A DNA stretch of 10,925 bases. It comes from an uncultured Roseburia sp. (GTDB lineage Bacteria > Bacillota > Clostridia > Lachnospirales > Lachnospiraceae). Shown piece by piece: positions 1-10,925 of the stretch. A program made the translations under genes and the position numbers. Below the pieces are notes generated by a model. The model had not been told where the DNA came from. It was given only the letters and a program-made list of their open reading frames with translations, and made no database searches. Each line of letters opens with the position of its first letter. Positions within the stretch are counted from its first letter, which is position 1. The DNA lies in the NCBI GenBank assembly GCA_937877505.1, contig CALFIN010000018.1, positions 1 through 10,925 on the forward strand. The letters are read 5' to 3'.

Positions 1-61
1 TTAGGCTATAATTTTTCTGTAAGTTAATGTGTTTGGTCATACATTAATTTTACACTAACTG

Positions 62-100
62 CCGGATTCTTTCGAGGTCTGGCAGTTATTTTTTTGCATA
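62..100 (+). terminator. Putative rho-independent terminator on the + strand. A stem ctgccgg...ctggcag (about 8 bp including G-U pairs) is followed by TTATTTTTTT. It presumably serves a + strand gene ending at or before nt 27, outside or at the edge of the window.
   Basis: Hairpin plus a 9-T run read directly from the sequence. All three + frames hit a stop by nt 27, so no + strand CDS in the window can explain it. Confidence 0.4.
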
Positions 101-107
101 GAAAAGG

Positions 108-146
108 AGCTGCGCACTAATTACTTAGTGCGACAGCCCCTTTTTC
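108..146 (-). terminator. Putative intrinsic terminator downstream of the 147..866 gene. The stem is GCTGtCGCACTAA / TTAGTGCGcAGC with loop GTAA (minus-strand reading), followed by TCCTTTTCT. The same hairpin is followed on the + strand by CCCTTTTTCTT, so it may act in both directions.
   Basis: Inverted repeat 113-120 / 125-132 with flanking T-rich tracts on both strands. It lies immediately 3' of the stop codon at 147-149 (minus strand). Confidence 0.45.
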
Positions 147-866
147 TTATTCCTCTTTCTCCTCAAGATACTGATACCTTACTTCTGTCTCTTGCCCATA
201 TACCGCCTGAAAATAAGTTGTCAGCAAATAATGCGCTGCTTCATCTGATTGTTCTATAATATCGCTCTCCAACACTTTTTTCTTCTCTTTCTCCTCTGCC
301 TCAACGATCAATTTCGTATAATCCGATACTTTTACCGGATTAAAAATATTATTTTTCTCATCATAAACTTCTAAAGAATCCTGTATTGTATAGTTATCCA
401 GAATCTCCGAATGCGGAACCGTCAGTTCTATCTTTGTCACTTTCCCTTCCGAATCCGTTATTTCCTTAAACGAAACATTTTCCCCATTAATTCCGATTTT
501 CATTTTCCCGTCAATCGTTGCAATGAAATTATTTCCGGTCAGCGGGATTTTAAATCCCTTGATTTCATTTTGGTCAGAAAAATGCAACATCGTCGTATAA
601 TTAATCTCATATGCGCTATATTCTGAAATCTTTTTTACTTCTTCCTGAATCAAATCTACCGCTACCCGCTTACGTTCCATTTCTTCCAGCTTATTTTGCA
701 ATTCCTTATTCTCATAATCTTTTACTGCGCAGCTTCTTATTGAAAAAACGCAAATTAAAACTAATACTGCCGCCAGCAATAATTTTTTCATCTGATCACC
801 TGCACTGCTATTTTTCTTATCTGTATCTAACTTTATCTTCCTAAACCAATTTTTCAATTTATCCAT
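147..866 (-). CDS. Hypothetical extracytoplasmic protein of 239 aa. It has a short basic N-terminus, one hydrophobic segment (KKLLLAAVLVLICVFSI) acting as a signal anchor or signal peptide, a beta-rich domain of unknown function and an acidic EEKEKKK tail. No family is recognised.
   Basis: The ORF is intact with an ATG at 864-866 on the reverse complement. A strong SD sequence, TAAGGAGCTGGGAT, sits immediately upstream of the ATG. The hydrophobic N-terminal segment and lysine-rich AT-biased codon usage match the neighbouring genes. Confidence 0.8.
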   Translation of the reverse strand: MDKLKNWFRKIKLDTDKKNSSAGDQMKKLLLAAVLVLICVFSIRSCAVKDYENKELQNKLEEMERKRVAVDLIQEEVKKISEYSAYEINYTTMLHFSDQNEIKGFKIPLTGNNFIATIDGKMKIGINGENVSFKEITDSEGKVTKIELTVPHSEILDNYTIQDSLEVYDEKNNIFNPVKVSDYTKLIVEAEEKEKKKVLESDIIEQSDEAAHYLLTTYFQAVYGQETEVRYQYLEEKEE

Positions 867-904
867 ATCCCAGCTCCTTACAGCCTCTCATTTATAAAAG
901 ATTC

Positions 905-950
905 GTCAAAAAACGCTGTCCATAGCCAAAAAAGTATGAACAGCGTTTTT
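905..950 (-). terminator. Intrinsic terminator between the MCP gene and the 239-aa protein gene. The stem AACGCTGT / ACAGCGTT has a roughly 20-nt loop and is flanked by an A-tract on one side and a T-tract on the other, so it may act in both directions.
   Basis: An 8-bp perfect inverted repeat (912-919 / 940-947) read from the sequence. The minus strand reads AAAAACGCTGT...ACAGCGTTTTTTGA after the MCP stop at 1006. Confidence 0.5.
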
Positions 951-1005
951 CCTTCACTCATTTCTTGAAACAGGAACTCTATGTACGCATTGTTTGTTTC
1001 ATTGG

Positions 1006-2712
1006 TTATTCATCTAAAAAAGTGAACTGGCCTACTAAATCGTCGAGCGTCGTCGCCTGAGCCGATAATTCCTCACTGGTCGCTGACGTCTCCTGAGCCG
1101 CCGCTGAGTTATTCTGCACAACGTCCGAAATCTGGGAAACGCCCTGCTCAGCCTGGCGCATCGTCTCACTCTGATCTCCGATCATAATGCTTAACTGCTT
1201 AGAAACGTCTGCAATCTGCTTGATCCCGTCTACAACAATTCCAATCGAGCTAGATGCGCTTTCCACCGCGCGGTTTCCACCCTCAATTTCCTGAAGGGAG
1301 CCTTCAATCAGCTCTCTTGTATCCACTGCCGCTTTTGCGCTCTGCTCTGCAAGCTGACGGATCTGATCCGCCACAACTGCAAAGCCGCGGCCTGCCTCGC
1401 CTGCTCTTGCCGCTTCAATGGATGCATTCAATGACAGAAGATTGGTCTGGGAAGCGATTGATTCAATTTCCGAAATAATATTTCCGATTTTCGTGGACGT
1501 GTCGTCAATTTTCTTCATTGCTTCTACAACTGTGTTCATGCCTTCCCGGCTGTTATCCGCTTCTTCTGCGCACTTTTGTGTCTGGGTATAGGAATCCCCT
1601 GCATCTTCCGCGCTTCTTTGCATTGCTTCCGTAATGCTGATAATCGTCGCCTGAAGCTCCTGAACTGCGCCTGCCTGCTCTACTGCTCCTTCTGCAAGTC
1701 CCTGCGCCGACTCTGCTAAATTTCCGGAGCCTGCGGAAACCTGATTAGATGCTTCCCCGATGGAACGGAGCGTAGCCGTCATTTGATTTCTTAAATCCCG
1801 CATAGCCTGAAGCATCTTTGCAAACTCCCCGGTGTACTGTTCCGGTATTGCAGTCCTGACTGCATAATTCCCTGTCGACATTTCACCCAAAAGAAGGCCT
1901 AGATCATCAATAATCGCATTCAACTTATCTGACATATCCCTTGCATCCTGAACCATGTCCGCAACTTCATCGTCCGCTTCAACTTCCGGAAACGGAGATG
2001 AAAAATCTCCACCGCCGAGAGCTTTTAAGCGTTGGCCCAGATCAGCCAATGGTTTTGCAATTCCCTTTGCAATTCCCTTGCCCATCTTTGTTGAAACCAG
2101 CATAGCCGACACAATCACTACAATTATAAAAGCCGCTAATACAATAGACAATATACGAAGGGTCGTAGAAAGGCTGTTTCCTTCATTTATCTTTACAGTT
2201 AACAGCCCTTCTAATTTTTCATAAATACTGTTGTATTTTCCCGCCAACTCATTTAACGCAATGTCCTGAGCCTGTTTACAAAGTTCCCTGTCTGTCGTCG
2301 CTCCAAGCTCTAAAATCTGTGTATCCATCTCCCAGTAAGCATCCAATTCCGAAACAATTTCATCATAAGTCTCCCTGCCGTCTTTCGATACGATAGTGTC
2401 TTCTACTTTAGCAAAGTATTCTTCAAACGTTGCTTTCATTTCTTTATGCTGCTCTACTACGTTTTGGATTGCATCCGCATCGTCATAGCCAATCGCTGCG
2501 CGCAGTGAAGACCTTGTATCTGCAAATGCAAACAACGCCTGTCCGATATCTCCTTGCGCAAATCCATAATTCTTTAACGCATAAGAATATCTGCTTGCAA
2601 GAACCAACATTGCAATCAGTCCTACGATTGCCGCGATTGCCGAAATCGCTGAAACCATAACAAATGATTTCGTAAGTCTTTTTTCGATTCTTTCATTGTT
2701 GAATTTTAACAT
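1006..2712 (-). CDS. Methyl-accepting chemotaxis protein. Its layout is TM1, an extracytoplasmic four-helix-bundle (4HB_MCP-like) sensor, TM2, a HAMP domain and a methyl-accepting signalling domain. The most likely start is the ATG at 2710-2712 ([11 protein letters not shown]...), giving 568 aa. The longest-ORF start at 2754 adds 14 aa but has no properly spaced SD.
   Basis: The signalling domain carries the highly conserved core [35 protein letters not shown] (MCP signalling domain, PF00015 type). Two hydrophobic segments flank a helical sensor of about 150 aa. GAAAGGGGAAGAGGA lies upstream of the ATG at 2712. Confidence 0.9.
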
Positions 2713-2789
2713 TCCTCTTCCCCTTTCACTTTTTAGAATCCAATCTGATGGCATACCTTTCGCTAATGGAACGCAGTCATTCTATTATC

Positions 2790-2870
2790 TTAAGTTTACC
2801 AATAACCTCATTATAATACTTTTATGTAAATTATACAATATTTTTTTATTGCCAATTTTACTATACGTCA
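2790..2870 (-). promoter_or_regulatory. AT-rich putative promoter region for the MCP gene. On the minus strand there are two TATAAT hexamers about 20 nt apart (attgTATAATttacataaaagtatTATAATgagg), but only weak -35 candidates.
   Basis: Hexamers read from the reverse complement. No consensus -35 at 17-bp spacing was found, so the assignment is tentative. Confidence 0.25.
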
Positions 2871-2894
2871 ATTTAACGAAAAAATTAATGCAGA

Positions 2895-2928
2895 CAAAAA
2901 AGGCAGCGTCCCTTACGAAACACTGCCT
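2895..2928 (-). terminator. Intrinsic terminator 18 nt downstream of the FN3-protein stop codon. The stem is GGCAG/CTGCC, extendable with one mismatch, with a roughly 12-nt loop, followed by TTTTTTG on the minus strand.
   Basis: Inverted repeat 2902-2906 / 2923-2927. An A7 run at 2895-2901 on the + strand gives the U-tract on the minus strand. Confidence 0.6.
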
Positions 2929-2945
2929 CCTTATTATGCGAAAAA

Positions 2946-4112
2946 CTATTTTAAAGATATTACGGAACTGAACTTACCGTCAATGCGTTTTCCCTTCGCA
3001 TTCTTTACATAAGCCCTGACTTTGTAATAGTATACCCCGCCTTTTTTCGGCTTGTTTACTGCCCACTTTGTCGTTTTTCCCTTTTTGATTGTTTTAAGCA
3101 GTTTATAGGTTCCGCCTTTTTTCTTACTCCGGTAAATCTGGTATCCTTTTGCATTCGATACTTTTTTCCATGAAATGGTCGACTTCTTCGCCTCTGTATT
3201 TTTTAAAGTAACTTTCGTTACCTTTTTTGGCGACGTTGTGACCTTTACAGCCGAGCTGTATTTCCCATATGACTTAGAGCCGTCCTCTTTATTCTTATAC
3301 GCTCGAAACTTAAACGTATAAGACGCAGCATACTTGAATTTTTTGGAATATGCCGTAACGGAAGGATTGTTGATTTTTTTCAGTCTCTTATAAGTTTTTG
3401 ATTTTGCATTGTATTGGTAAATTTCATAGCCATCTGCATCCGCGACTTTCTTCCATTCAAACACAATGCTGTTTGAACCTTTCACAGGTGACGCTTTCAG
3501 TTTCGGCTTTTTGCCAAAAGCCTCCTCCACAGGCGTCTGATCCGACGGATCACCGGCAGGCGGCTGTTCCGCTGGCGGCTCTGCCGTCTCATTTTTTACG
3601 AAAACGCTTTGCGGGCTGTCCAAAAGAAGTGACATTTCATTCAAACCGCTTGCATCTACATATCTAATTACCGGCTCATTACTGCCTTCGGTTCCGGATG
3701 CAAACTCCACTTTTGCCTGATATTCCTGACTGGAAGGGTGTAGGGATAATTTTCCTGTTTTCACAGATTCATTTCCAGAAAAAATATCCTGATCTTCCTT
3801 TCCTGAAAGAATTAAATCCACAAGGTAGCTTCCGTCCTCTAACTGCCGGATCTGAGAATCTTTAATCCGGCTGTTCAATGATTCCTCAAACTGAAATGAT
3901 GGCTGTTCCATCGTTCCTGAAAGAACCGAAACATGGAGTTTTATACGGAGTGACGTAATCTTATCTGTTTTTCCTTCTGGAAGGTTTACGGTCAGGATAA
4001 CGTCATTTTTATCTACTGTAAGCATTTGGCTGTCGCTTGCCGCTGCGGCGTCTAAAGGCGCCGCAACAATAAGAAACATTGTCAATAACATACATTTAAT
4101 CCAATTTTTCAT
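2946..4112 (-). CDS. Secreted 388-aa protein. It has a signal peptide (MKNWIKCMLLTMFLIVAAPLDAAAAS), a beta-rich N-terminal domain of about 170 aa with unknown identity, a Pro/Glu-rich linker and two tandem fibronectin-type-III-like modules that are extremely lysine-rich. The true start is the ATG at 4110-4112, not the TTG at 4181 given in the ORF track.
   Basis: A perfect SD sequence, AAGGAGGT (reverse complement of 4117-4124), sits 4 nt upstream of the ATG at 4112. The N-terminus is signal-peptide-like. The FN3 pattern W-K-K-V...GY-IYR...Y-Y-VRAY occurs twice. The stop TAG is at 2946-2948. The gene overlaps the upstream gene's stop codon (4096-4098) by 17 nt. Confidence 0.8.
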   Translation of the reverse strand: MKNWIKCMLLTMFLIVAAPLDAAAASDSQMLTVDKNDVILTVNLPEGKTDKITSLRIKLHVSVLSGTMEQPSFQFEESLNSRIKDSQIRQLEDGSYLVDLILSGKEDQDIFSGNESVKTGKLSLHPSSQEYQAKVEFASGTEGSNEPVIRYVDASGLNEMSLLLDSPQSVFVKNETAEPPAEQPPAGDPSDQTPVEEAFGKKPKLKASPVKGSNSIVFEWKKVADADGYEIYQYNAKSKTYKRLKKINNPSVTAYSKKFKYAASYTFKFRAYKNKEDGSKSYGKYSSAVKVTTSPKKVTKVTLKNTEAKKSTISWKKVSNAKGYQIYRSKKKGGTYKLLKTIKKGKTTKWAVNKPKKGGVYYYKVRAYVKNAKGKRIDGKFSSVISLK

Positions 4113-7100
4113 ACTTACCTCCTTGAAGCGTAATATCCGGCAATTCCTGAGGAATCTCAAGCAGTTTTGTATCACTGACAATACGCTCGCCCTCTAACGT
4201 CAGGGCATTGTCTACACGGTATAATTCTCCACGCACGAAGCCTGTGTTCCTTATCGCTTCTAAATTCCACTGATCCGGCCTTACATAATATACCCAAGTT
4301 CCGTCTGAGGTTTCACCCAGATTTCCTTGTTCCGGAACGTCCGCCAAAATTATTTGTTCCGCAGAGACATTTCCATCTTTTTCCCCGATTACATTGCCAT
4401 TTGCATCATAGAGCGCAACTACATTATATGCCGGATTTCCTTTATATGTCCCGGTAAAGATTAATGAGCCTGCCGGAATTACGTCCTCCGCCTCTTGGCC
4501 ATATATAAAGTCTTCCTTCAATACGCCGATTGCCGGCTGGCCTTCTTCCGTTGCCATAAATTCCAAATTATCCCCTGTCGGGCCGCAGATTTCGATTTCC
4601 TGAATGGAAATATTGCCCGCCTGCGACAGCGTCAGCCTTACATATTTCGCATCGTAAGTGCCAATCCAGTTCTTGCGGTCTTCTTCATTGACGGAATCAA
4701 ACCATACCGTCTGCTCTGCATTTGCGGCAAGAGAAACGTTCTCTTTCACTTTTGTCCAATTCTCACCATCTGGGCTGACTTCAACTGCCGCCGAAGCAAC
4801 TGCAGAACCCTGATATTTTAATGCCGTCACTTCTTCTGTCTTACGCATATCTATGGTAATTGACGCGGCGCCGCCGCTTACTCCGTTATAAGTTCCAGCC
4901 GCTGTCCTGTCATTGTCTAAAATCCTTGTAATGCTGTTGACCTTTTTCGCTTCTACGCCTGCCGGATCTTCCGCTTCATATCCGCTGTCCGGATCTTCTC
5001 CGTCCGGCTCGATTACGGTATCGTCAGCCGAAGTCATTGTTGTCTCCACTGTCCATTCAGATTTATTTAATACGCCGTCTGTCTGAATCTTTACTGAACC
5101 AGCCGTTTTTACATTGGAATAATTCAAGTATTTATCCACTGCGCGGACTTCATATTCCATTACCCGATTGTTAATTGATGAAATGGAGTCTACAAAAACG
5201 GTAGAGTCCGCCGTGTCAATCGGCGCAAACCCAATTACCTGAGTGGATTTTTTACCGTTTGAAATCATACTGCGGCTGATTTCATAGCCAAGCATAAGCT
5301 CTGCGCTGCGATCTGTCGCAATCGTGATTTCCGCCTGATTTCCGGCTGCATTTACTGTAGCTGCAGTAACGGCGTCTTGATCTTTTATTGTCCCTTCCTC
5401 ATTTGGATGATCCACGCGGTAATCTCTTGCATCGTCATTGACATAATAGAGCGCTTTCGTTTCCGCCTCTCCATATTTTGCCGCATATGCAGTTGTTTTC
5501 TCATCTGGCTGCATCCCCCAGCGCACAAAGAAAGGAAGAATATTTTTATTTGCCGCCGCGCATGCAAGACGCATAATGTTCTGTTCTGAGCCTCCGTCTA
5601 ACGTTAATCCTTCCTGCGGAGCCATTTTTGGATTTCTTGAATAAGTGTCCACTCTTGCAAAGAACAGGTTAATGAACTGATCTTCATAGTTGTCGTAAAT
5701 ATGTCTGTCGTCCTTATTATTGTCATATGCAATATGGAGCTGCCAGTACAATGCAAGCTGCGTCGCTACATTCGGAGAGCGTCCGATTGTATTTGACGTT
5801 ACTTTGTCGTAGACATTTTTGTATGTGAATCTTGTCTTTCCGGGAACTTTTGTCAATAGCTGCGCAAAGTAATTGTTTGTGATTTCCGCAACCGCATATG
5901 CGCCCTGATTGATGTCATGCCCAATTTCATGCGCTACGCCCCAGCCAAATCCTGACCAGTCGTTTGGCGCGCTTGCTAATAATGTGGAACCCCATTCTAC
6001 GCCAATGTGGTTGCCTGACGCATACATAAACGCTCCGGCAAACATTCTCATATAACGGATATTCAAGTGCTGCGCCGGCCATGCGTTATTTCCTCTTACG
6101 GTTCCCGCGTTATCACTTAATCCTTTATGCTGATAAAACAGCGTCATAGTTTTTTCCATTGCTTTTAAGGCAAGGTCAAGTTTTACCGCTTTATCTTCTG
6201 CGTTTTTGATGCCTGCCCAAACCTGAGTTGCAGGTACGGAATACATCATTTCCCTCATCATAATATCTGTTGTATTTAAAATACAGTTTTGCTGGTCATA
6301 CGGATAATCTACATTTTTTGTCCCTGTATGTTTTGCCGCATGTCCCGCTTCAATCGTTCCGACATATTGCTCAAGCTCTTTTACATAAGCGGAAATCGCC
6401 GCCATGCGTTCTTCTTGTGTTTTTCCATACACGCTTAAGACCGGAATATCGCTTCCGCCGCTTATACGGACTGCATACTTATCGTTTGCATTGTTTCCAG
6501 TATATGCTACATATAACTGTCCGCCGCGTTCAAATTCTTTGCTGACAATCTGGGGAACTGTAATTTCATTTCTTCCCACTTTTAAGCTGACTGCTTTTGA
6601 AAGCGTTGCCGCTTCTGCGTGCTGCTGCGTAAACACAAGCTGCAGGCTTGCTTTATCTCCAGTTCTCTTTGTATTATGCCCGACATAAACAAGCAGGCTT
6701 TCACCGGCATATACTGTTTTCCCAACCGGCTGCCATGAATTTAAACCGCCAAATCCAAGATGCCCGTCTTTGCTTCCCGTAATCTGGTTTTCCACTTCAT
6801 AAGCGCAAGCCAGATTTGAATTTAAAATCTCTCTTGCTGTCTTTAATTCTAAAGTCAGTTCATTGTAAAGCGGATGTTTTTCACCGCTTGCCTCGTCTAC
6901 AAGCTCTAAACGGGCTTCTAATGCCTGAATGACGCTTTCCGTTACGTCTGCCCGCAGTGTAGTGTGCATTTCGTCTGTATATAAGCCCATAATGTCATCT
7001 TCCAGCGAATCATAATAATGGAAATGGATTTCACCTACCATCATAGATGCCCTAACACTGTCACGTCCCAGACAAATATTTACTTTATTTGCAGTGATTG

Positions 7101-9327
7101 CCTGATCAAGCTTAATAATATAGTATGGATTGTTCCTTGAGTCAAGTTTTCTATACAGACGCGCGCCCACGTTCTGTTTTTCTGTAGACGCTGTATTCCA
7201 ATACCCAATCCGCGCATATTGAAACGCTGCTTTTTCGTCCGCGGATGCAAATGTGATAAAATTCATCTGGTAATCCTGATCCAGCGTCACTGTAAATCCC
7301 TTATTGTCTGCCGGATAAGCCACGCCATCGTCCCAGTCTGTTTTTTCCCAATAAGATCCAAAGTTATTATCCACTAAGCCAAGCGCGCTTTTTTCCGCTG
7401 TATCTAACGCGCTGCCTACCATCTTTGCGCCGCCATGCCCGCCATATGACGCTGCTGTAATATGGGCGCTGACTGCCCCTTCTCCATTTGAAGTATTCAA
7501 CAGTTTATAATTCGGAAGCTGTGGCGGGACATTTAACTTCGTAAGCGCGGATGCTGACAGTGATGGGCTGCCCCAGCCAAGGTCATTCCAGCCTACGACA
7601 TAGACGGAATATTCCACTTCGTCCTCTAAGCCTGCAATGACATAATGCGTTGCGTTTAATTTTCCGGTTCCTTCTTTTACCTGTGTAAATCCTTCGATCA
7701 CCGGACGGTACTCTGTATCCGCATCTTTTGTCTTTTTATAATAAACCATGTATCCGTTTGCGTCGTCCATGTCTTTCCATGACACTTCTATCGTCCGGTA
7801 CCCGCCTGTCGCAGATACATTATCAGGCGCCGCCGGAAGTTTCGTCGGCTTCGGCTCTCCGATTACTTCGTTTGACCATGGACTGCTCCAGTCTCCATTG
7901 ACAGAACGCGCTTTTATTGTATATTTTTCAAAGTTTAAAAGCGGTTTGTCATTTATAGATGATATTGTATGCGTAATATTAGATACGCGCACAATCTGTG
8001 TTTCATGTTCTTCTTGGTTTTTCACAGGACCTGAAATATATACCTCATACCCCGTCACATTTTTCTGCGGGTTCCAAGATACAATCAATCCTTTATCTAC
8101 GGATTGTGGAACTCCAAGCGTCGGAATGTCCATCTGCGGCGCCGGTATCCTTTTTTCCATATCGTTGACAAAATCAACCTTTGCAATATTCACCAAAGGC
8201 TCCGTCTTTTTCGTGCCGGTAATTTTAATCGTTACCCGCTTTACTGCAATCTGGCCTCCAAAATCTAACACCAGCGAACCGTCAGCCTCAACGTCTGCCG
8301 AAATAGTCGCTGCGCGGTTTGACGCATTTGCAGCAAATAGCGCCCTGTTCTTTTTTTGCTTTGGCTTTGCGGCGGCAGAAAACGGAACCGACGTTTCTTT
8401 TCCTTCCGCGTCTGTATAAATCACTTCCCCTTCCGTTATTTCATTGGAAATGCCGCCCTGTTCATCTGTTACCGGAGCATGAACGACAATTCCTTGAATC
8501 TCTACCGCTTTTTTTGTATCTTCCACTAATGTAAAGTTAATCCCAACAGGATTTTCCGCTGAAATCTGCGCATTTGCATTTTCAGGCTTTAATTTCAGCG
8601 CGCCTGTTCCATTTAAAAAGTCGTTGACGTTTCCTTCCATAGTTGCGCCCTCAGCCTGCTGGATCGTTTGGACTATGCCAAGCTTCTCCACTGTGGACTC
8701 CCTATGTTCATCTATGCTTTGCACAATATACTGCAAATCTGCCATATCCACTTTCCCATCTTGATTGAGATCAAAGGCAGCTTCCATAGAGCCTTCACGG
8801 ATTTTCGACATCATGCCGTCAATGTCCGTTTGGTCAATTACTCCATCTTGATTGACGTCGCCGACCCGAATCCAGCCCGGAGCCGCTTCATTGCCCGTCT
8901 CAATTCTTGATGGAGAAATTAAAATCTTGGTTTTCCAGCCATTTTGCGCTTTCACATCCTGCGTATAGTCCGCAAATTGGGCTGACTTCACAGTAACTGT
9001 GTAATCTCCTTCTGACACTTCAAACCTTGCCGCTGCAAAGGAAGCCTTAGAACCCTCAAATTTTAAATCCTTTGATTCCACTACTTCGCTGCCACGTCCG
9101 ATTTGTACGGTTACGTCACCCTGAAATGGGAATTGAGCGGAAGAACGCACCCCTACTTCCAGAACGCTCTGCGCTTTGCCTGAATCCACTGACTCAGATG
9201 CAGCCTGCGCTTCGCCAAAATCCACTGACCCAGATGCAGTCTGCGCCCCAAACACCGGTTTTGCATTGCCTATCCATGTCTGAAATGCCAGACATCCGGC
9301 AAGCAGCATTGCCACCATTCTTTTCAT
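4096..9327 (-). CDS. Giant secreted multimodular M60-like (enhancin-like) zinc metallopeptidase of 1743 aa. Approximate residue ranges are: signal peptide 1-27; Ig-like (carboxypeptidase-regulatory-like) domain about 55-145; type-I dockerin 154-206; FN3 x2 at 405-590; F5/8-type-C (CBM32-like) domain about 600-772; helical linker; M60-like N-domain plus catalytic domain about 850-1275 with HEIGH at 1133-1137 and the downstream Glu at 1148; Ig-like domain about 1315-1415; second F5/8-type-C domain about 1425-1585; C-terminal domain of unknown function. No LPXTG or SLH anchor is present.
   Basis: A long uninterrupted ORF with an ATG at 9325-9327 and AAAGGAAAGAGAC upstream. The zinc motif is WGVAHEIGHDINQGAYAVAE (HEXXH plus E, spaced as in Peptidase_M60). 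Discoidin-like segments end in ...VGEIHF and ...IQEIEICG. Dockerin repeats are GDVNQDGVIDQTDIDGMM and FDLNQDGKVDMADLQYIV. FN3 signatures are present. All of this is pattern recognition by eye; no HMM search was run. Confidence 0.9.
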   Translation of the reverse strand: MKRMVAMLLAGCLAFQTWIGNAKPVFGAQTASGSVDFGEAQAASESVDSGKAQSVLEVGVRSSAQFPFQGDVTVQIGRGSEVVESKDLKFEGSKASFAAARFEVSEGDYTVTVKSAQFADYTQDVKAQNGWKTKILISPSRIETGNEAAPGWIRVGDVNQDGVIDQTDIDGMMSKIREGSMEAAFDLNQDGKVDMADLQYIVQSIDEHRESTVEKLGIVQTIQQAEGATMEGNVNDFLNGTGALKLKPENANAQISAENPVGINFTLVEDTKKAVEIQGIVVHAPVTDEQGGISNEITEGEVIYTDAEGKETSVPFSAAAKPKQKKNRALFAANASNRAATISADVEADGSLVLDFGGQIAVKRVTIKITGTKKTEPLVNIAKVDFVNDMEKRIPAPQMDIPTLGVPQSVDKGLIVSWNPQKNVTGYEVYISGPVKNQEEHETQIVRVSNITHTISSINDKPLLNFEKYTIKARSVNGDWSSPWSNEVIGEPKPTKLPAAPDNVSATGGYRTIEVSWKDMDDANGYMVYYKKTKDADTEYRPVIEGFTQVKEGTGKLNATHYVIAGLEDEVEYSVYVVGWNDLGWGSPSLSASALTKLNVPPQLPNYKLLNTSNGEGAVSAHITAASYGGHGGAKMVGSALDTAEKSALGLVDNNFGSYWEKTDWDDGVAYPADNKGFTVTLDQDYQMNFITFASADEKAAFQYARIGYWNTASTEKQNVGARLYRKLDSRNNPYYIIKLDQAITANKVNICLGRDSVRASMMVGEIHFHYYDSLEDDIMGLYTDEMHTTLRADVTESVIQALEARLELVDEASGEKHPLYNELTLELKTAREILNSNLACAYEVENQITGSKDGHLGFGGLNSWQPVGKTVYAGESLLVYVGHNTKRTGDKASLQLVFTQQHAEAATLSKAVSLKVGRNEITVPQIVSKEFERGGQLYVAYTGNNANDKYAVRISGGSDIPVLSVYGKTQEERMAAISAYVKELEQYVGTIEAGHAAKHTGTKNVDYPYDQQNCILNTTDIMMREMMYSVPATQVWAGIKNAEDKAVKLDLALKAMEKTMTLFYQHKGLSDNAGTVRGNNAWPAQHLNIRYMRMFAGAFMYASGNHIGVEWGSTLLASAPNDWSGFGWGVAHEIGHDINQGAYAVAEITNNYFAQLLTKVPGKTRFTYKNVYDKVTSNTIGRSPNVATQLALYWQLHIAYDNNKDDRHIYDNYEDQFINLFFARVDTYSRNPKMAPQEGLTLDGGSEQNIMRLACAAANKNILPFFVRWGMQPDEKTTAYAAKYGEAETKALYYVNDDARDYRVDHPNEEGTIKDQDAVTAATVNAAGNQAEITIATDRSAELMLGYEISRSMISNGKKSTQVIGFAPIDTADSTVFVDSISSINNRVMEYEVRAVDKYLNYSNVKTAGSVKIQTDGVLNKSEWTVETTMTSADDTVIEPDGEDPDSGYEAEDPAGVEAKKVNSITRILDNDRTAAGTYNGVSGGAASITIDMRKTEEVTALKYQGSAVASAAVEVSPDGENWTKVKENVSLAANAEQTVWFDSVNEEDRKNWIGTYDAKYVRLTLSQAGNISIQEIEICGPTGDNLEFMATEEGQPAIGVLKEDFIYGQEAEDVIPAGSLIFTGTYKGNPAYNVVALYDANGNVIGEKDGNVSAEQIILADVPEQGNLGETSDGTWVYYVRPDQWNLEAIRNTGFVRGELYRVDNALTLEGERIVSDTKLLEIPQELPDITLQGGKYEKLD
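4573..5055 (-). other. F5/8-type-C (discoidin / CBM32-like) module number 2, residues about 1425-1585.
   Basis: ITRILDNDRTAAGTYNGVSGGAASITIDM ... YVRLTLSQAGNISIQEIEICG is a discoidin-like signature. Confidence 0.5.
5503..6780 (-). other. M60-like peptidase region, N-terminal accessory domain plus catalytic domain. The HEIGH codons are at 5917-5931 on the + strand coordinates.
   Basis: HEIGHDINQGAYAVAE fits HEXXHX(8-28)E, the enhancin/M60-like consensus. The downstream block ILPFFVRWGMQPDEKT sits at the point where the M60-like catalytic domain ends and the Ig-like domain begins, and is a second recognisable landmark of the domain boundary. Confidence 0.65.
7012..7530 (-). other. F5/8-type-C (discoidin / CBM32-like) carbohydrate-binding module number 1, residues about 600-772.
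   Basis: GLVDNNFGSYWEKTDWDD ... VNICLGRDSVRASMMVGEIHFHYY. Discoidin domains characteristically open with a D-x-N-x-x-T-x-W motif and close with a [VI]-x-E-[IV]-x-[FV]-x-G motif. Confidence 0.5.
7558..8115 (-). other. Two tandem fibronectin type III modules at residues about 405-590 of the peptidase.
   Basis: IVSWNPQKNVTGYEVYISG...YTIKARSVNGDWSSPWS and IEVSWKDMDDANGYMVYY...YSVYVVGWNDLGWGSPS carry the typical W...GY.VY...Y.....W FN3 pattern. Confidence 0.6.
8710..8868 (-). other. Type-I dockerin module, two EF-hand-like Ca-binding repeats spaced about 30 aa apart, at residues 154-206 of the peptidase.
   Basis: Duplicated D-[VL]-N-Q-D-G-x-[VI]-D-x-x-D segments each followed by a hydrophobic helix (GDVNQDGVIDQTDIDGMMSKI ... 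FDLNQDGKVDMADLQYIVQSI). This is the classic dockerin signature, read directly from the translation. Confidence 0.7.
9183..9254 (-). repeat. Imperfect in-frame tandem duplication with a 36-nt period and 2 copies. It encodes GSVDFGEAQAAS / ESVDSGKAQSVL directly after the signal peptide of the peptidase.
   Basis: aatccactgactcagatgcagcctgcgc at 9183-9210 and aatccactgacccagatgcagtctgcgc at 9219-9246, read from the sequence. The 12-aa periodicity is visible in the translation. Confidence 0.7.
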
Positions 9328-9339
9328 GTCTCTTTCCTT

Positions 9340-9430
9340 TCTCTACAATATATTTCATATTTTGCGTCATATATTTTAACATAATCTTCCAAAGAAAAAA
9401 ACATTTTTCTAAAATTGTATTAATTTAAAA
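9340..9430 (-). promoter_or_regulatory. AT-rich promoter region of the peptidase gene. On the minus strand there is a candidate extended -10, TGtTAAAAT (reverse complement of 9373-9381), with a poor -35. On the + strand there are direct repeats ATATATTT at 9348-9355 and 9369-9376, 21 bp apart, overlapping the -10.
   Basis: Motifs read from the sequence. No convincing -35 was found, so the call is low confidence. The repeats could form an operator. Confidence 0.3.
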
Positions 9431-9431
9431 C

Positions 9432-9460
9432 AAAAAAAGCGGCGTAAAAACGCCGCTTTC
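9432..9460 (-). terminator. Strong intrinsic terminator 15 nt downstream of tRNA-Leu. The stem GCGGCG / CGCCGC has loop TTTTTA and is followed by TTTTTTTG on the minus strand.
   Basis: A perfect 6-bp GC stem (9439-9444 / 9451-9456) with an A7 run at 9432-9438 on the + strand, which gives a U7 tract on the minus strand. Confidence 0.7.
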
Positions 9461-9471
9461 TAAATATAAAA

Positions 9472-9555
9472 TGCCCGCGACCGGAATCGAACCGGTACTG
9501 TATCGCTACAACAGGATTTTAAGTCCTGCGCGTCTGCCAGTTCCGCCACGCGGGC
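9472..9555 (-). tRNA. tRNA-Leu, anticodon TAA (UAA). It is a class II tRNA with a long variable arm. No CCA is encoded.
   Basis: Reverse complement gives GCCCGCG-TG-...-CAGGA-CTTAAAA-TCCTG-(15-nt variable arm)-ACCGGTTCGATTCCGGT-CGCGGGC-A. This has a 7-bp acceptor stem, a 5-bp anticodon stem with a 7-nt loop and TAA at positions 34-36, and a T-arm with TTCGATT. Confidence 0.85.
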
Positions 9556-9587
9556 AAATCAAACAATGATACAATAAAAATCTCAAA

Positions 9588-9669
9588 TGGGCAGAGGTGG
9601 ATTCGAACCACCGAAGCAATTTGCAGCAGATTTACAGTCTGTCCCCTTTGGCCACTCGGGAATCTGCCC
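9588..9669 (-). tRNA. tRNA-Tyr, anticodon GTA (GUA). It has a long variable arm. No CCA is encoded.
   Basis: Reverse complement gives GGGCAGA-TT-CCCGAGTGGCCAAAGGG-G-ACAGA-CTGTAAA-TCTGC-(13-nt variable arm)-GGTGGTTCGAATCCACC-TCTGCCC-A. This has a 7-bp acceptor stem, GTA at positions 34-36, and a T-arm with TTCGAAT. The + ORF 9597..9791 in the supplied track overlaps it and is spurious. Confidence 0.85.
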
Positions 9670-9699
9670 ATAGAAAAGCATCCAAAAATGCCCTACCAT

Positions 9700-9750
9700 T
9701 TATTTATTATATCACAAACGCTTTTCTTTTTCAAGCGCTTTTTTTTATAA
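9700..9750 (-). promoter_or_regulatory. Near-consensus sigma-A promoter for the tRNA-Tyr/tRNA-Leu unit. It has an A8 UP-like tract (reverse complement of 9739-9746), -35 TTGAAA (reverse complement of 9729-9734), a 17-nt spacer and an extended -10 TGaTATAAT (-10 hexamer is the reverse complement of 9706-9711). The predicted transcription start is near 9697-9699, about 30 nt upstream of the mature tRNA-Tyr 5' end.
   Basis: Hexamers and spacing read directly from the reverse complement: aaaaaaaagcgcTTGAAAaagaaaagcgtttgTGaTATAATaaataaatgg. Confidence 0.55.
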
Positions 9751-9818
9751 ACATGCCACAATCCTTTTTCATCTTCCATTCACGCGTCTAACCAACGCTG
9801 ACGGAAAAGACCGTCCGC

Positions 9819-10925
9819 CTATATTCTTTCTAAAATCACCGCTGATTTTTTTTGCATTGTAATCGAAAGTCTGCCTTTTTCCACACGATGCCGGATCGGC
9901 ATCAGGGAATATCCGTTTTCCGTAGTCACAAAAACCTGACACAGCGTTGCCGTTCTTGGAATCCCAGCTTTTACCGTGAAAACCTCTAAGTCCCTTTCCC
10001 TGTCATCATGGTTAATCAGAATCACAAACTGCTGGTCAATCGTAAATCTCGCATAACATAAAAGTTTGTCTTCACTATTTAAGAATTGAAAAGAGCCTGT
10101 CCGCAATGCCTCGTTATTTTTATGGATACGGATTAATTCCCGATGCAAATCAATTAAATCCTGATTTTCATTCCCCCACGGATATGTCCTGCGGTTGTCT
10201 GGATCCGTAAATCCACATAATCCGGCTTCATCTCCATAATAAAGCGTCGGCGCGCCCGGCCATGTCATCTGCATCACAACCGCTTCCCGCATCGCGCTGT
10301 ACTCTATGCCCTCGCTTGCCGCCCCCGCGCCTAAATATTCCACACGTCCCGCCTTATGGTTTGTCCTCGTCAAAAACCGCGAATGGTCATGGTTTGACAA
10401 CTGGTTCATGGAACAAAGCAGGGAAGGCGTCAGAAAACTTGCCATATAATGGCGCATCGCGCCTTCAAAATCACTGATTTTGCCAATGCGTTCTGGGTGG
10501 TATTCGTCGCTATGCTTCTCCATTCCGGTTAAAAACCATGTCAAAGGCTCCATAAAAGCGGAATAGTTCATAATTGTATCCCACTGATCGCCCATCAGCC
10601 AGTCTTTCGGGTCTCCATAGTGTTCCGCCAAGATTATGGCATTTGGGTTCGCTTCTTTTACCGCTTTCCTAAAGTCCCTCCAGAACTGGTGGTTAAATTC
10701 TTTACTGTGCCCTAAATCCTCCGCTACGTCCAGCCGCCATCCGTCTACGCAATATGGCTCTGACACCCATTTTTTGCCAATGCGCAAAATGTCGTCATAC
10801 AGCTCTTTCGAACCCTCAAAGTTTAACTTCGGAAGCGTGTCATGCCCCCACCATCCTTCATAGTTTTTATTATCCGGCCACGCGCTGTCTTCCTGATCCT
10901 TAAACCCAAAGTAACTGCGGTATGG
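9819..10925 (-). CDS. Glycoside hydrolase family 13 (alpha-amylase superfamily) enzyme, C-terminal roughly 368 aa only. It looks like a neopullulanase / cyclomaltodextrinase / maltogenic-amylase type. The gene continues beyond the window end, so the 5' end is partial. The M at 10787 in the ORF track is a TTG codon encoding an internal Leu.
   Basis: The frame stays open from 10788 to 10925 with no stop, reading ...YEGWWGHDTLPKLNFEGSKELYDDILRIGKKWVSEPYCVDGWRLDVAEDLG.... GH13 conserved regions are present: II (GWRLDVA, nucleophile Asp), III (ILAEHYG, acid/base Glu) and IV (LSNHDHSRF). The stop TAG is at 9819-9821. Confidence 0.9.
   Translation of the reverse strand, partial: PYRSYFGFKDQEDSAWPDNKNYEGWWGHDTLPKLNFEGSKELYDDILRIGKKWVSEPYCVDGWRLDVAEDLGHSKEFNHQFWRDFRKAVKEANPNAIILAEHYGDPKDWLMGDQWDTIMNYSAFMEPLTWFLTGMEKHSDEYHPERIGKISDFEGAMRHYMASFLTPSLLCSMNQLSNHDHSRFLTRTNHKAGRVEYLGAGAASEGIEYSAMREAVVMQMTWPGAPTLYYGDEAGLCGFTDPDNRRTYPWGNENQDLIDLHRELIRIHKNNEALRTGSFQFLNSEDKLLCYARFTIDQQFVILINHDDRERDLEVFTVKAGIPRTATLCQVFVTTENGYSLMPIRHRVEKGRLSITMQKKSAVILERI

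Follow-up and report, generated by a model that had tools for sequence, protein, structure and literature searches.

A dockerin-bearing M60-like peptidase and an adjacent protein of predicted cohesin fold as a candidate two-gene surface-display unit in Lachnospiraceae

This study concerns two adjacent genes on a contig of an uncultured Roseburia sp. of the Lachnospiraceae (GenBank assembly GCA_937877505.1, contig CALFIN010000018.1, positions 1 to 10,925 of the forward strand), and the whole stretch of 10,925 nucleotides is referred to here as the window. The first gene encodes an M60-like peptidase that carries a dockerin. The second, directly 3' of it on the same strand, encodes a small protein, hereafter the partner, in which a signal peptide is followed by an N-terminal domain (N-domain) of predicted cohesin fold, an acidic linker and two lysine-rich FN3 modules (Table 1). 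From the evidence of this locus and its relatives, the partner probably holds the peptidase at the cell surface, by binding its dockerin at one end and the cell wall at the other.

The linkage between the two genes is strict. When 1.84 billion representative proteins were searched exhaustively with HMMER, the N-domain turned up in only 65 clusters, nearly always in an N-terminal position, and in the ten that were scanned with Pfam it is followed by FN3-type repeats. About 100 full-length homologues of the partner were obtained, and the names given to them are 'hypothetical' or 'FN3 domain-containing'. When 20 distinct loci with a complete M60 gene were compared (the window, L001, L003, L005, L008-L019 and the distant loci L020, L021, L023 and L024), the gene directly upstream on the same strand was the M60 peptidase in 20/20, and the genes flanking the pair differed. 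One more locus, L022, has the same gene order with its M60 gene interrupted by the contig end, and L007 (isolate MGBC163558, a mouse-gut Lachnospiraceae metagenome-assembled genome) is 99-100 % identical to the window. N-domain identity across the loci goes down to ~30 %. An earlier note on this DNA had put forward the partner as the cell-surface anchor of the dockerin enzyme and had named lack of synteny in relatives as a refutation. The hypothesis was not refuted by this check, as the two genes are neighbours in all relatives that were compared (the 20 loci and L022). The parts of the two proteins do not evolve at one rate: over the 20 loci, the mean p-distance is 0.30 for the M60 catalytic core and nearly double that, 0.52-0.55, for the cohesin-like domain, the dockerin and the last FN3 module.

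The junction between the genes is more variable than their order. In the window, the sequence across the junction is CAAGGAGGTAAGTATGAAAAATTGGATTAA, the C-terminal end of the peptidase reads ...L Q G G K Y E K L D stop, and the partner ATG (4112-4110, minus strand) lies 17 nt within the peptidase open reading frame (ORF). The earlier note had described this overlap together with a perfect AAGGAGGT in the final codons of the peptidase, and both were confirmed on the sequence. However, the -17 overlap was seen in the window, L001, L007 and L010 only, which make up the window's subclade, and the intergenic gap in all other loci ranges from +11 to +307 nt. The Shine-Dalgarno (SD) sequence before the partner ATG is GGAGG-type in 15/20 loci and AGGAGA in the remaining 5. 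The translational coupling that had been read from the overlap is thus consistent with the window's subclade, but it does not extend to the other loci, where a gap precedes a partner gene with its own SD. Since gene order is constant while the overlap varies, selection acts on adjacency and not on obligatory translational coupling. These data also bear on the possibility that the genes are co-transcribed neighbours whose products make no physical contact, the partner being an independent wall-associated protein. An overlap that is not conserved, gaps of up to 307 nt and a separate SD for each gene would fit such an arrangement, but adjacency and orientation are kept in 21/21 loci despite ~70 % N-domain divergence and unrelated flanks, and the N-domain adjoins an M60 gene in every context examined, which makes mere neighbourhood quite improbable.

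Directly 3' of the partner stop codon lies an intrinsic-terminator-like hairpin with a U-run. The hairpin has a predicted folding energy of -26.3 kcal/mol (z -5.6), and 0/200 shuffled sequences were equally stable, though it was absent from the output of a simple terminator scan of the window. With this hairpin on one side and the terminator of a tRNA operon upstream of the peptidase gene on the other, the pair looks like a self-contained bicistronic unit.

The peptidase, which is the proposed client, scores 37.9 bits for Peptidase_M60 (PF13402; cut-off 25.8) and contains the HEXXH zinc motif expected of an M60 enzyme. Among proteins of solved structure it is closest to the C. perfringens O-glycopeptidases ZmpB (E 4e-26), ZmpC and ZmpA, and, judging from sequence, a mucin-type substrate is probable. 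Two fn3 modules were also found in it by Pfam, and no wall-binding repeat was present among its Pfam matches. The dockerin scores 29.3 bits for Dockerin_1 (PF00404; cut-off 22.9) and is a two-loop type I dockerin, defined here by two F-hand Ca-loops of the form D-x-N/D-x-D-G-x-x-x-x-x-D, each followed by a helix, and by a score above the Pfam gathering score. Both Ca-loops and a second helix of the form D-L/I-A-D-L-Q-x-V-V-Q are kept in 20/20 complete M60 proteins, including those from loci in which N-domain identity is ~30 %, with a G-W motif ahead of loop 1. No other double-loop dockerin motif was found in the window or in L001-L019, and a search for other clients using the N-terminus of the peptidase plus its dockerin returned two fragments only. 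Two further features lie between the signal peptide of the peptidase and the dockerin. The first is a near-duplicate short acidic repeat just after the signal peptide (SGSVDFGEAQAA / SESVDSGKAQS; 9160-9240, minus strand, residues ~30-56). The second is a beta-rich module without a Pfam match that abuts the dockerin (~8880-9150, minus strand, residues ~60-150), and by analogy it may play a role like that of the X-modules of type II/III X-dockerins.

The partner begins with what was judged by eye to be a Sec-type signal peptide (MKNWIKCMLLTMFLIVAAPLDAAAA, cleaved before S), in line with the earlier note, and this is the sole hydrophobic segment of the protein. Lipoprotein anchoring was considered and rejected, as the Cys found near the cleavage site of some homologues lies outside any lipobox. 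The region that follows, residues 27-176, has no Pfam or NCBIfam match. A model of residues 27-180 built from an alignment of 76 homologues is all-beta, with a predicted local distance difference test score (pLDDT) of 89.1 and a predicted template modelling score (pTM) of 0.84, and has the form of a nine-stranded beta jelly-roll of ~140-150 residues with cohesin topology. When this model was compared with known structures, it matched cohesins with Z scores from 11.6 (A. cellulolyticus ScaB Coh6, 5nrk) down to 8.4, with 112-128 residues superposed at 2.5-3.4 Å, and the list of matches includes the C. thermocellum single-cohesin anchors OlpA and OlpC as well as non-cellulosomal cohesins of C. 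perfringens. On the strength of this predicted model the N-domain very probably has a cohesin fold, although it is not assignable to the Pfam cohesin family from sequence. A precedent is reported for Ruminococcus, where 'AF2-only' cohesins have a fold that is detectable by structure but not by sequence (PMC13463774). The earlier description of a beta-rich domain that matches no named motif is accurate, apart from its length, which is ~150 aa and not ~170 aa. The suggestion of a divergent cohesin-like fold came through the fold check unrefuted and gains support from the predicted model, without a sequence-level match. A likeness to armadillo repeats in a phmmer search against the Protein Data Bank (PDB), with E 6e-6, was lost when the family profile was used, which marks it as a spurious chance similarity; this match to a designed armadillo protein covers window positions 3582-3738 (minus strand), or partner residues 125-177 (query 99-151 of the 154-aa segment).

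The C-terminal half of the partner is strongly basic. Residues 205-281 score 32.6 bits with the Pfam fn3 model (cut-off 25), and residues 296-334 match the FN3-like model GH85_C. An AlphaFold2 (AF2) model of the pair has a pLDDT of 95.5, and its top Foldseek matches in the PDB are all tandem FN3 structures, with E down to 6e-10, so that both the Pfam match and the seven-stranded fold place these modules in the FN3 family. Lysine makes up 22.6 % of module 1, 28.4 % of module 2 and 25.5 % of the pair, much as the earlier note had it with about one residue in four, and the isoelectric points (pI) are 10.0, 10.6 and 10.3, respectively, with a net charge of about +45 for the pair. An acidic head combined with a basic tail is a trait of the whole family, with a median pI of 4.57 in the N-domain and 10.25 in the C-terminal part, and the Pro/Glu linker between them differs in length among homologues. 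No LPXTG motif or C-terminal transmembrane segment was found in the partner or the peptidase across the 20 loci checked, and the partner has no SLH or other wall-binding Pfam match of the kind by which scaffoldin anchors are recognised.

That the FN3 pair may target the wall is suggested by its relatives. Related FN3 arrays in Lachnospiraceae, with 33-47 % identity to that of the partner and pI values of 9.4-10.2, are fused to M15_4, NlpC/P60 or CHAP peptidoglycan-hydrolase domains, and the catalytic part of these proteins is acidic. This union with peptidoglycan hydrolases points to wall targeting and is the best argument for it in this study, and basic FN3 arrays may be a general wall-targeting module. 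Based on charge and domain co-occurrence, the chances that the FN3 pair of the partner anchors it to the wall are about evenly balanced. Basic FN3 arrays also occur in a wider set of proteins from Lachnospiraceae and other Firmicutes (P0102-P0120), in which fusions to CHB_HEX_C/Fn3_assoc are present too. In some distant members of the partner family the C-terminal region is much extended and holds additional FN3-type repeats, namely in those of L021 (P0129, 1098 aa), L022 (P0159, 803 aa) and L023 (P0157, 689 aa), all of them directly 3' of an M60 gene, and this indicates that the anchor region varies in length.

The same basic modules allow for a different role, in which the partner is a substrate-targeting subunit whose FN3 modules bind polyanionic mucin (sialylated or sulfated O-glycans) or other host polyanions while the N-domain recruits the peptidase, whether or not through the dockerin, so that the complex is secreted and mucin-bound and not displayed on the cell. 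The net charge of the FN3 pair is compatible with this, as are the kinship of the client to mucin O-glycopeptidases, its CBM32-like module and the lack of a covalent anchor on either protein. Additionally, the FN12-14 region of fibronectin, known to bind heparin, is among the many FN3 structural matches. However, the related basic FN3 arrays sit on M15_4, NlpC/P60 and CHAP hydrolases, which act on the bacterial wall, and the peptidase already has a glycan-binding module of its own. A substrate-targeting role is considered unlikely.

The composite explanation favored here, with a probability of roughly 0.6, is that the two genes form a surface-display unit in which the small protein anchors the M60 enzyme. 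It builds on the arrangement of the genes, their domain composition, the cohesin fold of the modelled N-domain, the strict gene linkage and the conservation of the dockerin, which are direct results of this analysis. Both genes would be expressed from one transcription unit and both products would be exported via their Sec signal peptides. The small protein would then act as a single-cohesin anchoring scaffoldin, in which the N-domain (residues 27-176) would bind, in a Ca2+-dependent manner, the dockerin that the M60-like O-glycopeptidase encoded next to it carries at residues ~151-205, the acidic Pro/Glu linker would space the cohesin-like head from the wall, and the lysine-rich FN3 pair (about +45) would provide an electrostatic, non-covalent hold on anionic Gram-positive wall polymers. 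The peptidase would thus be retained on the cell surface and would cleave mucin-type glycoproteins there. Since the peptidase itself lacks an LPXTG motif, a C-terminal transmembrane segment and a Pfam wall-binding repeat, it is through the partner that it would be kept at the surface in this proposal. The central step is binding of the dockerin by the N-domain, and this is reasonably likely; the dockerin kept in the neighbouring gene at all 20 loci with a complete M60 lends it indirect support. Cohesin function is taken here to mean Ca2+-dependent dockerin binding, which normally takes place on the 8-3-6-5 sheet.

Several results weigh against this explanation. Foldseek showed weaker agreement for the N-domain (best E 7.6e-4, TM-score about 0.5), and its ranking had pilin, DsbD-N and YcnI folds interspersed among the cohesins. 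Searches of PDB sequences with phmmer and with a 47-sequence family profile found no cohesin, and Pfam at E<=10 gave no match to Cohesin (PF00963) for the 47 family members. Alignment of the family profile to that of a CipA cohesin (P0172, confirmed PF00963) with hhalign gave a probability of 0.1 %, using a thin cohesin profile for which the search had given only 10 CipA-like sequences, some of them frameshifted. Because there is no cohesin signal at the sequence level, the N-domain may have converged on a cohesin-like jelly-roll. Moreover, bacteria commonly hold orphan dockerins without a cohesin partner. In another reading, the N-domain is a cohesin-like beta-sandwich that serves in carbohydrate binding, as an adhesin, as a chaperone or in inhibiting the peptidase through some other part of the enzyme, and the dockerin is an orphan or is bound to something else. 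This reading is also unlikely, to about the same degree as the substrate-targeting role.

The data on linkage have a similar weakness with regard to the surface-display unit. The constant co-occurrence of the genes is a link between the M60 peptidase and the partner, not between the dockerin and the N-domain specifically. Mirror-tree analysis gave r 0.84 for the cohesin-like domain and the dockerin, with a partial correlation of 0.48 given the catalytic domain. The partial correlations for the other pairs (0.56 for the cohesin-like domain with FN3 and 0.42 for the dockerin with FN3) are similar, so this comparison is non-discriminating. Obligatory translational coupling can be argued for one subclade only. 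Finally, the ligand of polycationic FN3 modules could just as well be sulfated or sialylated mucin as the wall, and mucin binding is a live alternative for that end of the protein.

The pair has neighbours on both sides in the window. The tRNA operon 5' of the peptidase gene spans 9734-9434 (minus strand) and has a strong sigma-70-like promoter (TTGAAA-17-TATAAT with TG, 11/12 matches). Genes 3' of the partner encode a methyl-accepting chemotaxis protein (MCP; 4HB_MCP, HAMP and MCPsignal domains) at 1006-2754 and a DUF4230 protein at 147-866, both on the minus strand. The related loci L001 and L002 also have a downstream MCP gene, separated from the pair by a hemerythrin/response-regulator gene, which is not the case in loci of greater distance.

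Table 1. Features of the peptidase-partner locus, in positions of the window
Feature	Position	Strand	Details	Basis
M60-like peptidase gene	4096..9327	-	1743 aa; proposed client	Pfam
Dockerin of peptidase	8707..8877	-	GW at residue 151; Ca-loops DVNQDGVIDQTD and DLNQDGKVDMAD; Pfam residues 156-202	
M60 catalytic domain	5515..6267	-	Pfam residues 1021-1271; HEIGH at 1133-1137 (window 5931-5917)	
F5/8 type C (CBM32-like) module	4612..4920	-	peptidase residues 1470-1572	Pfam
Partner gene	2946..4112	-	388 aa + stop; signal peptide, cohesin-like domain, acidic linker, two basic FN3	
Signal peptide of partner	4038..4112	-	residues 1-25; cleavage motif AAA, then A/S	read by eye
Cohesin-like N-domain (predicted)	3585..4034	-	residues 27-176; acidic, pI 4.6	
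Acidic Pro/Glu-rich linker	3513..3584	-	residues 177-200	sequence and composition
FN3 module 1	3234..3512	-	residues 201-293	Pfam fn3 E 9.7e-8; AF2 and Foldseek tandem FN3
FN3 module 2	2949..3233	-	residues 294-388; 40 % identity to module 1	GH85_C (FN3-like) match
17-nt overlap	4096..4112	-	peptidase stop/partner start, ATGAAAAATTGGATTAA	junction sequence
Shine-Dalgarno	4118..4125	-	AAGGAGGT, perfect; 4 nt 5' of partner ATG, in peptidase Q-G-G-K codons	
Intrinsic-terminator-like hairpin and U-run	2891..2932	-	directly 3' of partner stop	RNA fold
tRNA-Tyr(gta)	9670-9587	-	tRNA operon	
tRNA-Leu(taa)	9556-9471	-	tRNA operon	
tRNA operon terminator	9461-9434	-	12-bp stem; ~100 nt 5' of peptidase start	

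Functionally, the proposed unit resembles systems with single-cohesin anchors such as OlpA and OlpC, which have SLH repeats, and ScaE and cSca5, which have LPXTG motifs. The closest analogues are the single-cohesin anchors of Clostridium (Acetivibrio) thermocellum such as OlpA (Cthe_3080) and OlpC (Cthe_0452). However, OlpA and OlpC bind the wall through SLH repeats, contain recognisable PF00963 cohesins and serve many plant-cell-wall enzymes without a one-to-one client gene, whereas in the pair described here the anchor would be a lysine-rich FN3 pair, the cohesin is invisible by sequence and there is a single adjacent M60 client. The unit also resembles the non-cellulosomal X82/Coh-Doc glycosidase complexes of C. 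perfringens (for example, NagJ cohesin and NagH dockerin), but there the cohesins are inside other enzymes and lead to enzyme-enzyme complexes, which differs from a cohesin-like domain on a dedicated non-catalytic anchor.

Another similar system is that of Limousia, whose recently described 'mucinolysome' uses cohesin-dockerin interactions in mucin breakdown and has among its components peptidases with dockerins and cSca5, a single-cohesin scaffoldin anchored to the wall (PMC12997984). Limousia belongs to the Acutalibacteraceae, and its system combines multi-cohesin scaffoldins with dozens of dockerin enzymes, an LPXTG sortase anchor and cohesins that Pfam detects (PMC12997984), while the pair in Lachnospiraceae would be a minimal 1:1 cassette without a sortase signal. 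The AF2-only cohesins of Ruminococcus are alike in that the fold is kept while divergence defeats detection by hidden Markov models (HMMs), but they belong to a cellulosome/amylosome setting with ScaE-like LPXTG or transmembrane anchors and glycoside-hydrolase clients (PMC13463774). Full-text literature searches found no description of the M60-partner pair. It differs from the systems above in its sequence-invisible cohesin family, polycationic FN3 anchor, strict one-to-one pairing and M60 client in Lachnospiraceae. A tentative view of what is new is that an unrecognised, structure-only cohesin family and a lysine-rich FN3 wall anchor make up a one-enzyme, one-anchor O-glycopeptidase display cassette, with an FN3 anchor that is shared with peptidoglycan hydrolases of the same bacteria, the Lachnospiraceae.

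If this is true, cohesin-dockerin display would be commoner in gut Clostridia than Pfam-based surveys show, and a cohesin family that HMM-based surveys miss would be added to those already recognised. The 'basic FN3' module would likewise be one more device for wall targeting besides SLH, CWB2, LysM and choline-binding repeats, and the compact cohesin-dockerin pair with its FN3 anchor could supply surface-display parts for Gram-positive hosts. M60-like O-glycopeptidases are key enzymes against the host mucus layer, and its release or retention by the cell determines who profits from the products of breakdown and how aggressively the organism acts on the barrier. The locus described in this study suggests that Lachnospiraceae of the mouse gut may have a simple and testable two-gene module for the display of such an enzyme on their surface.

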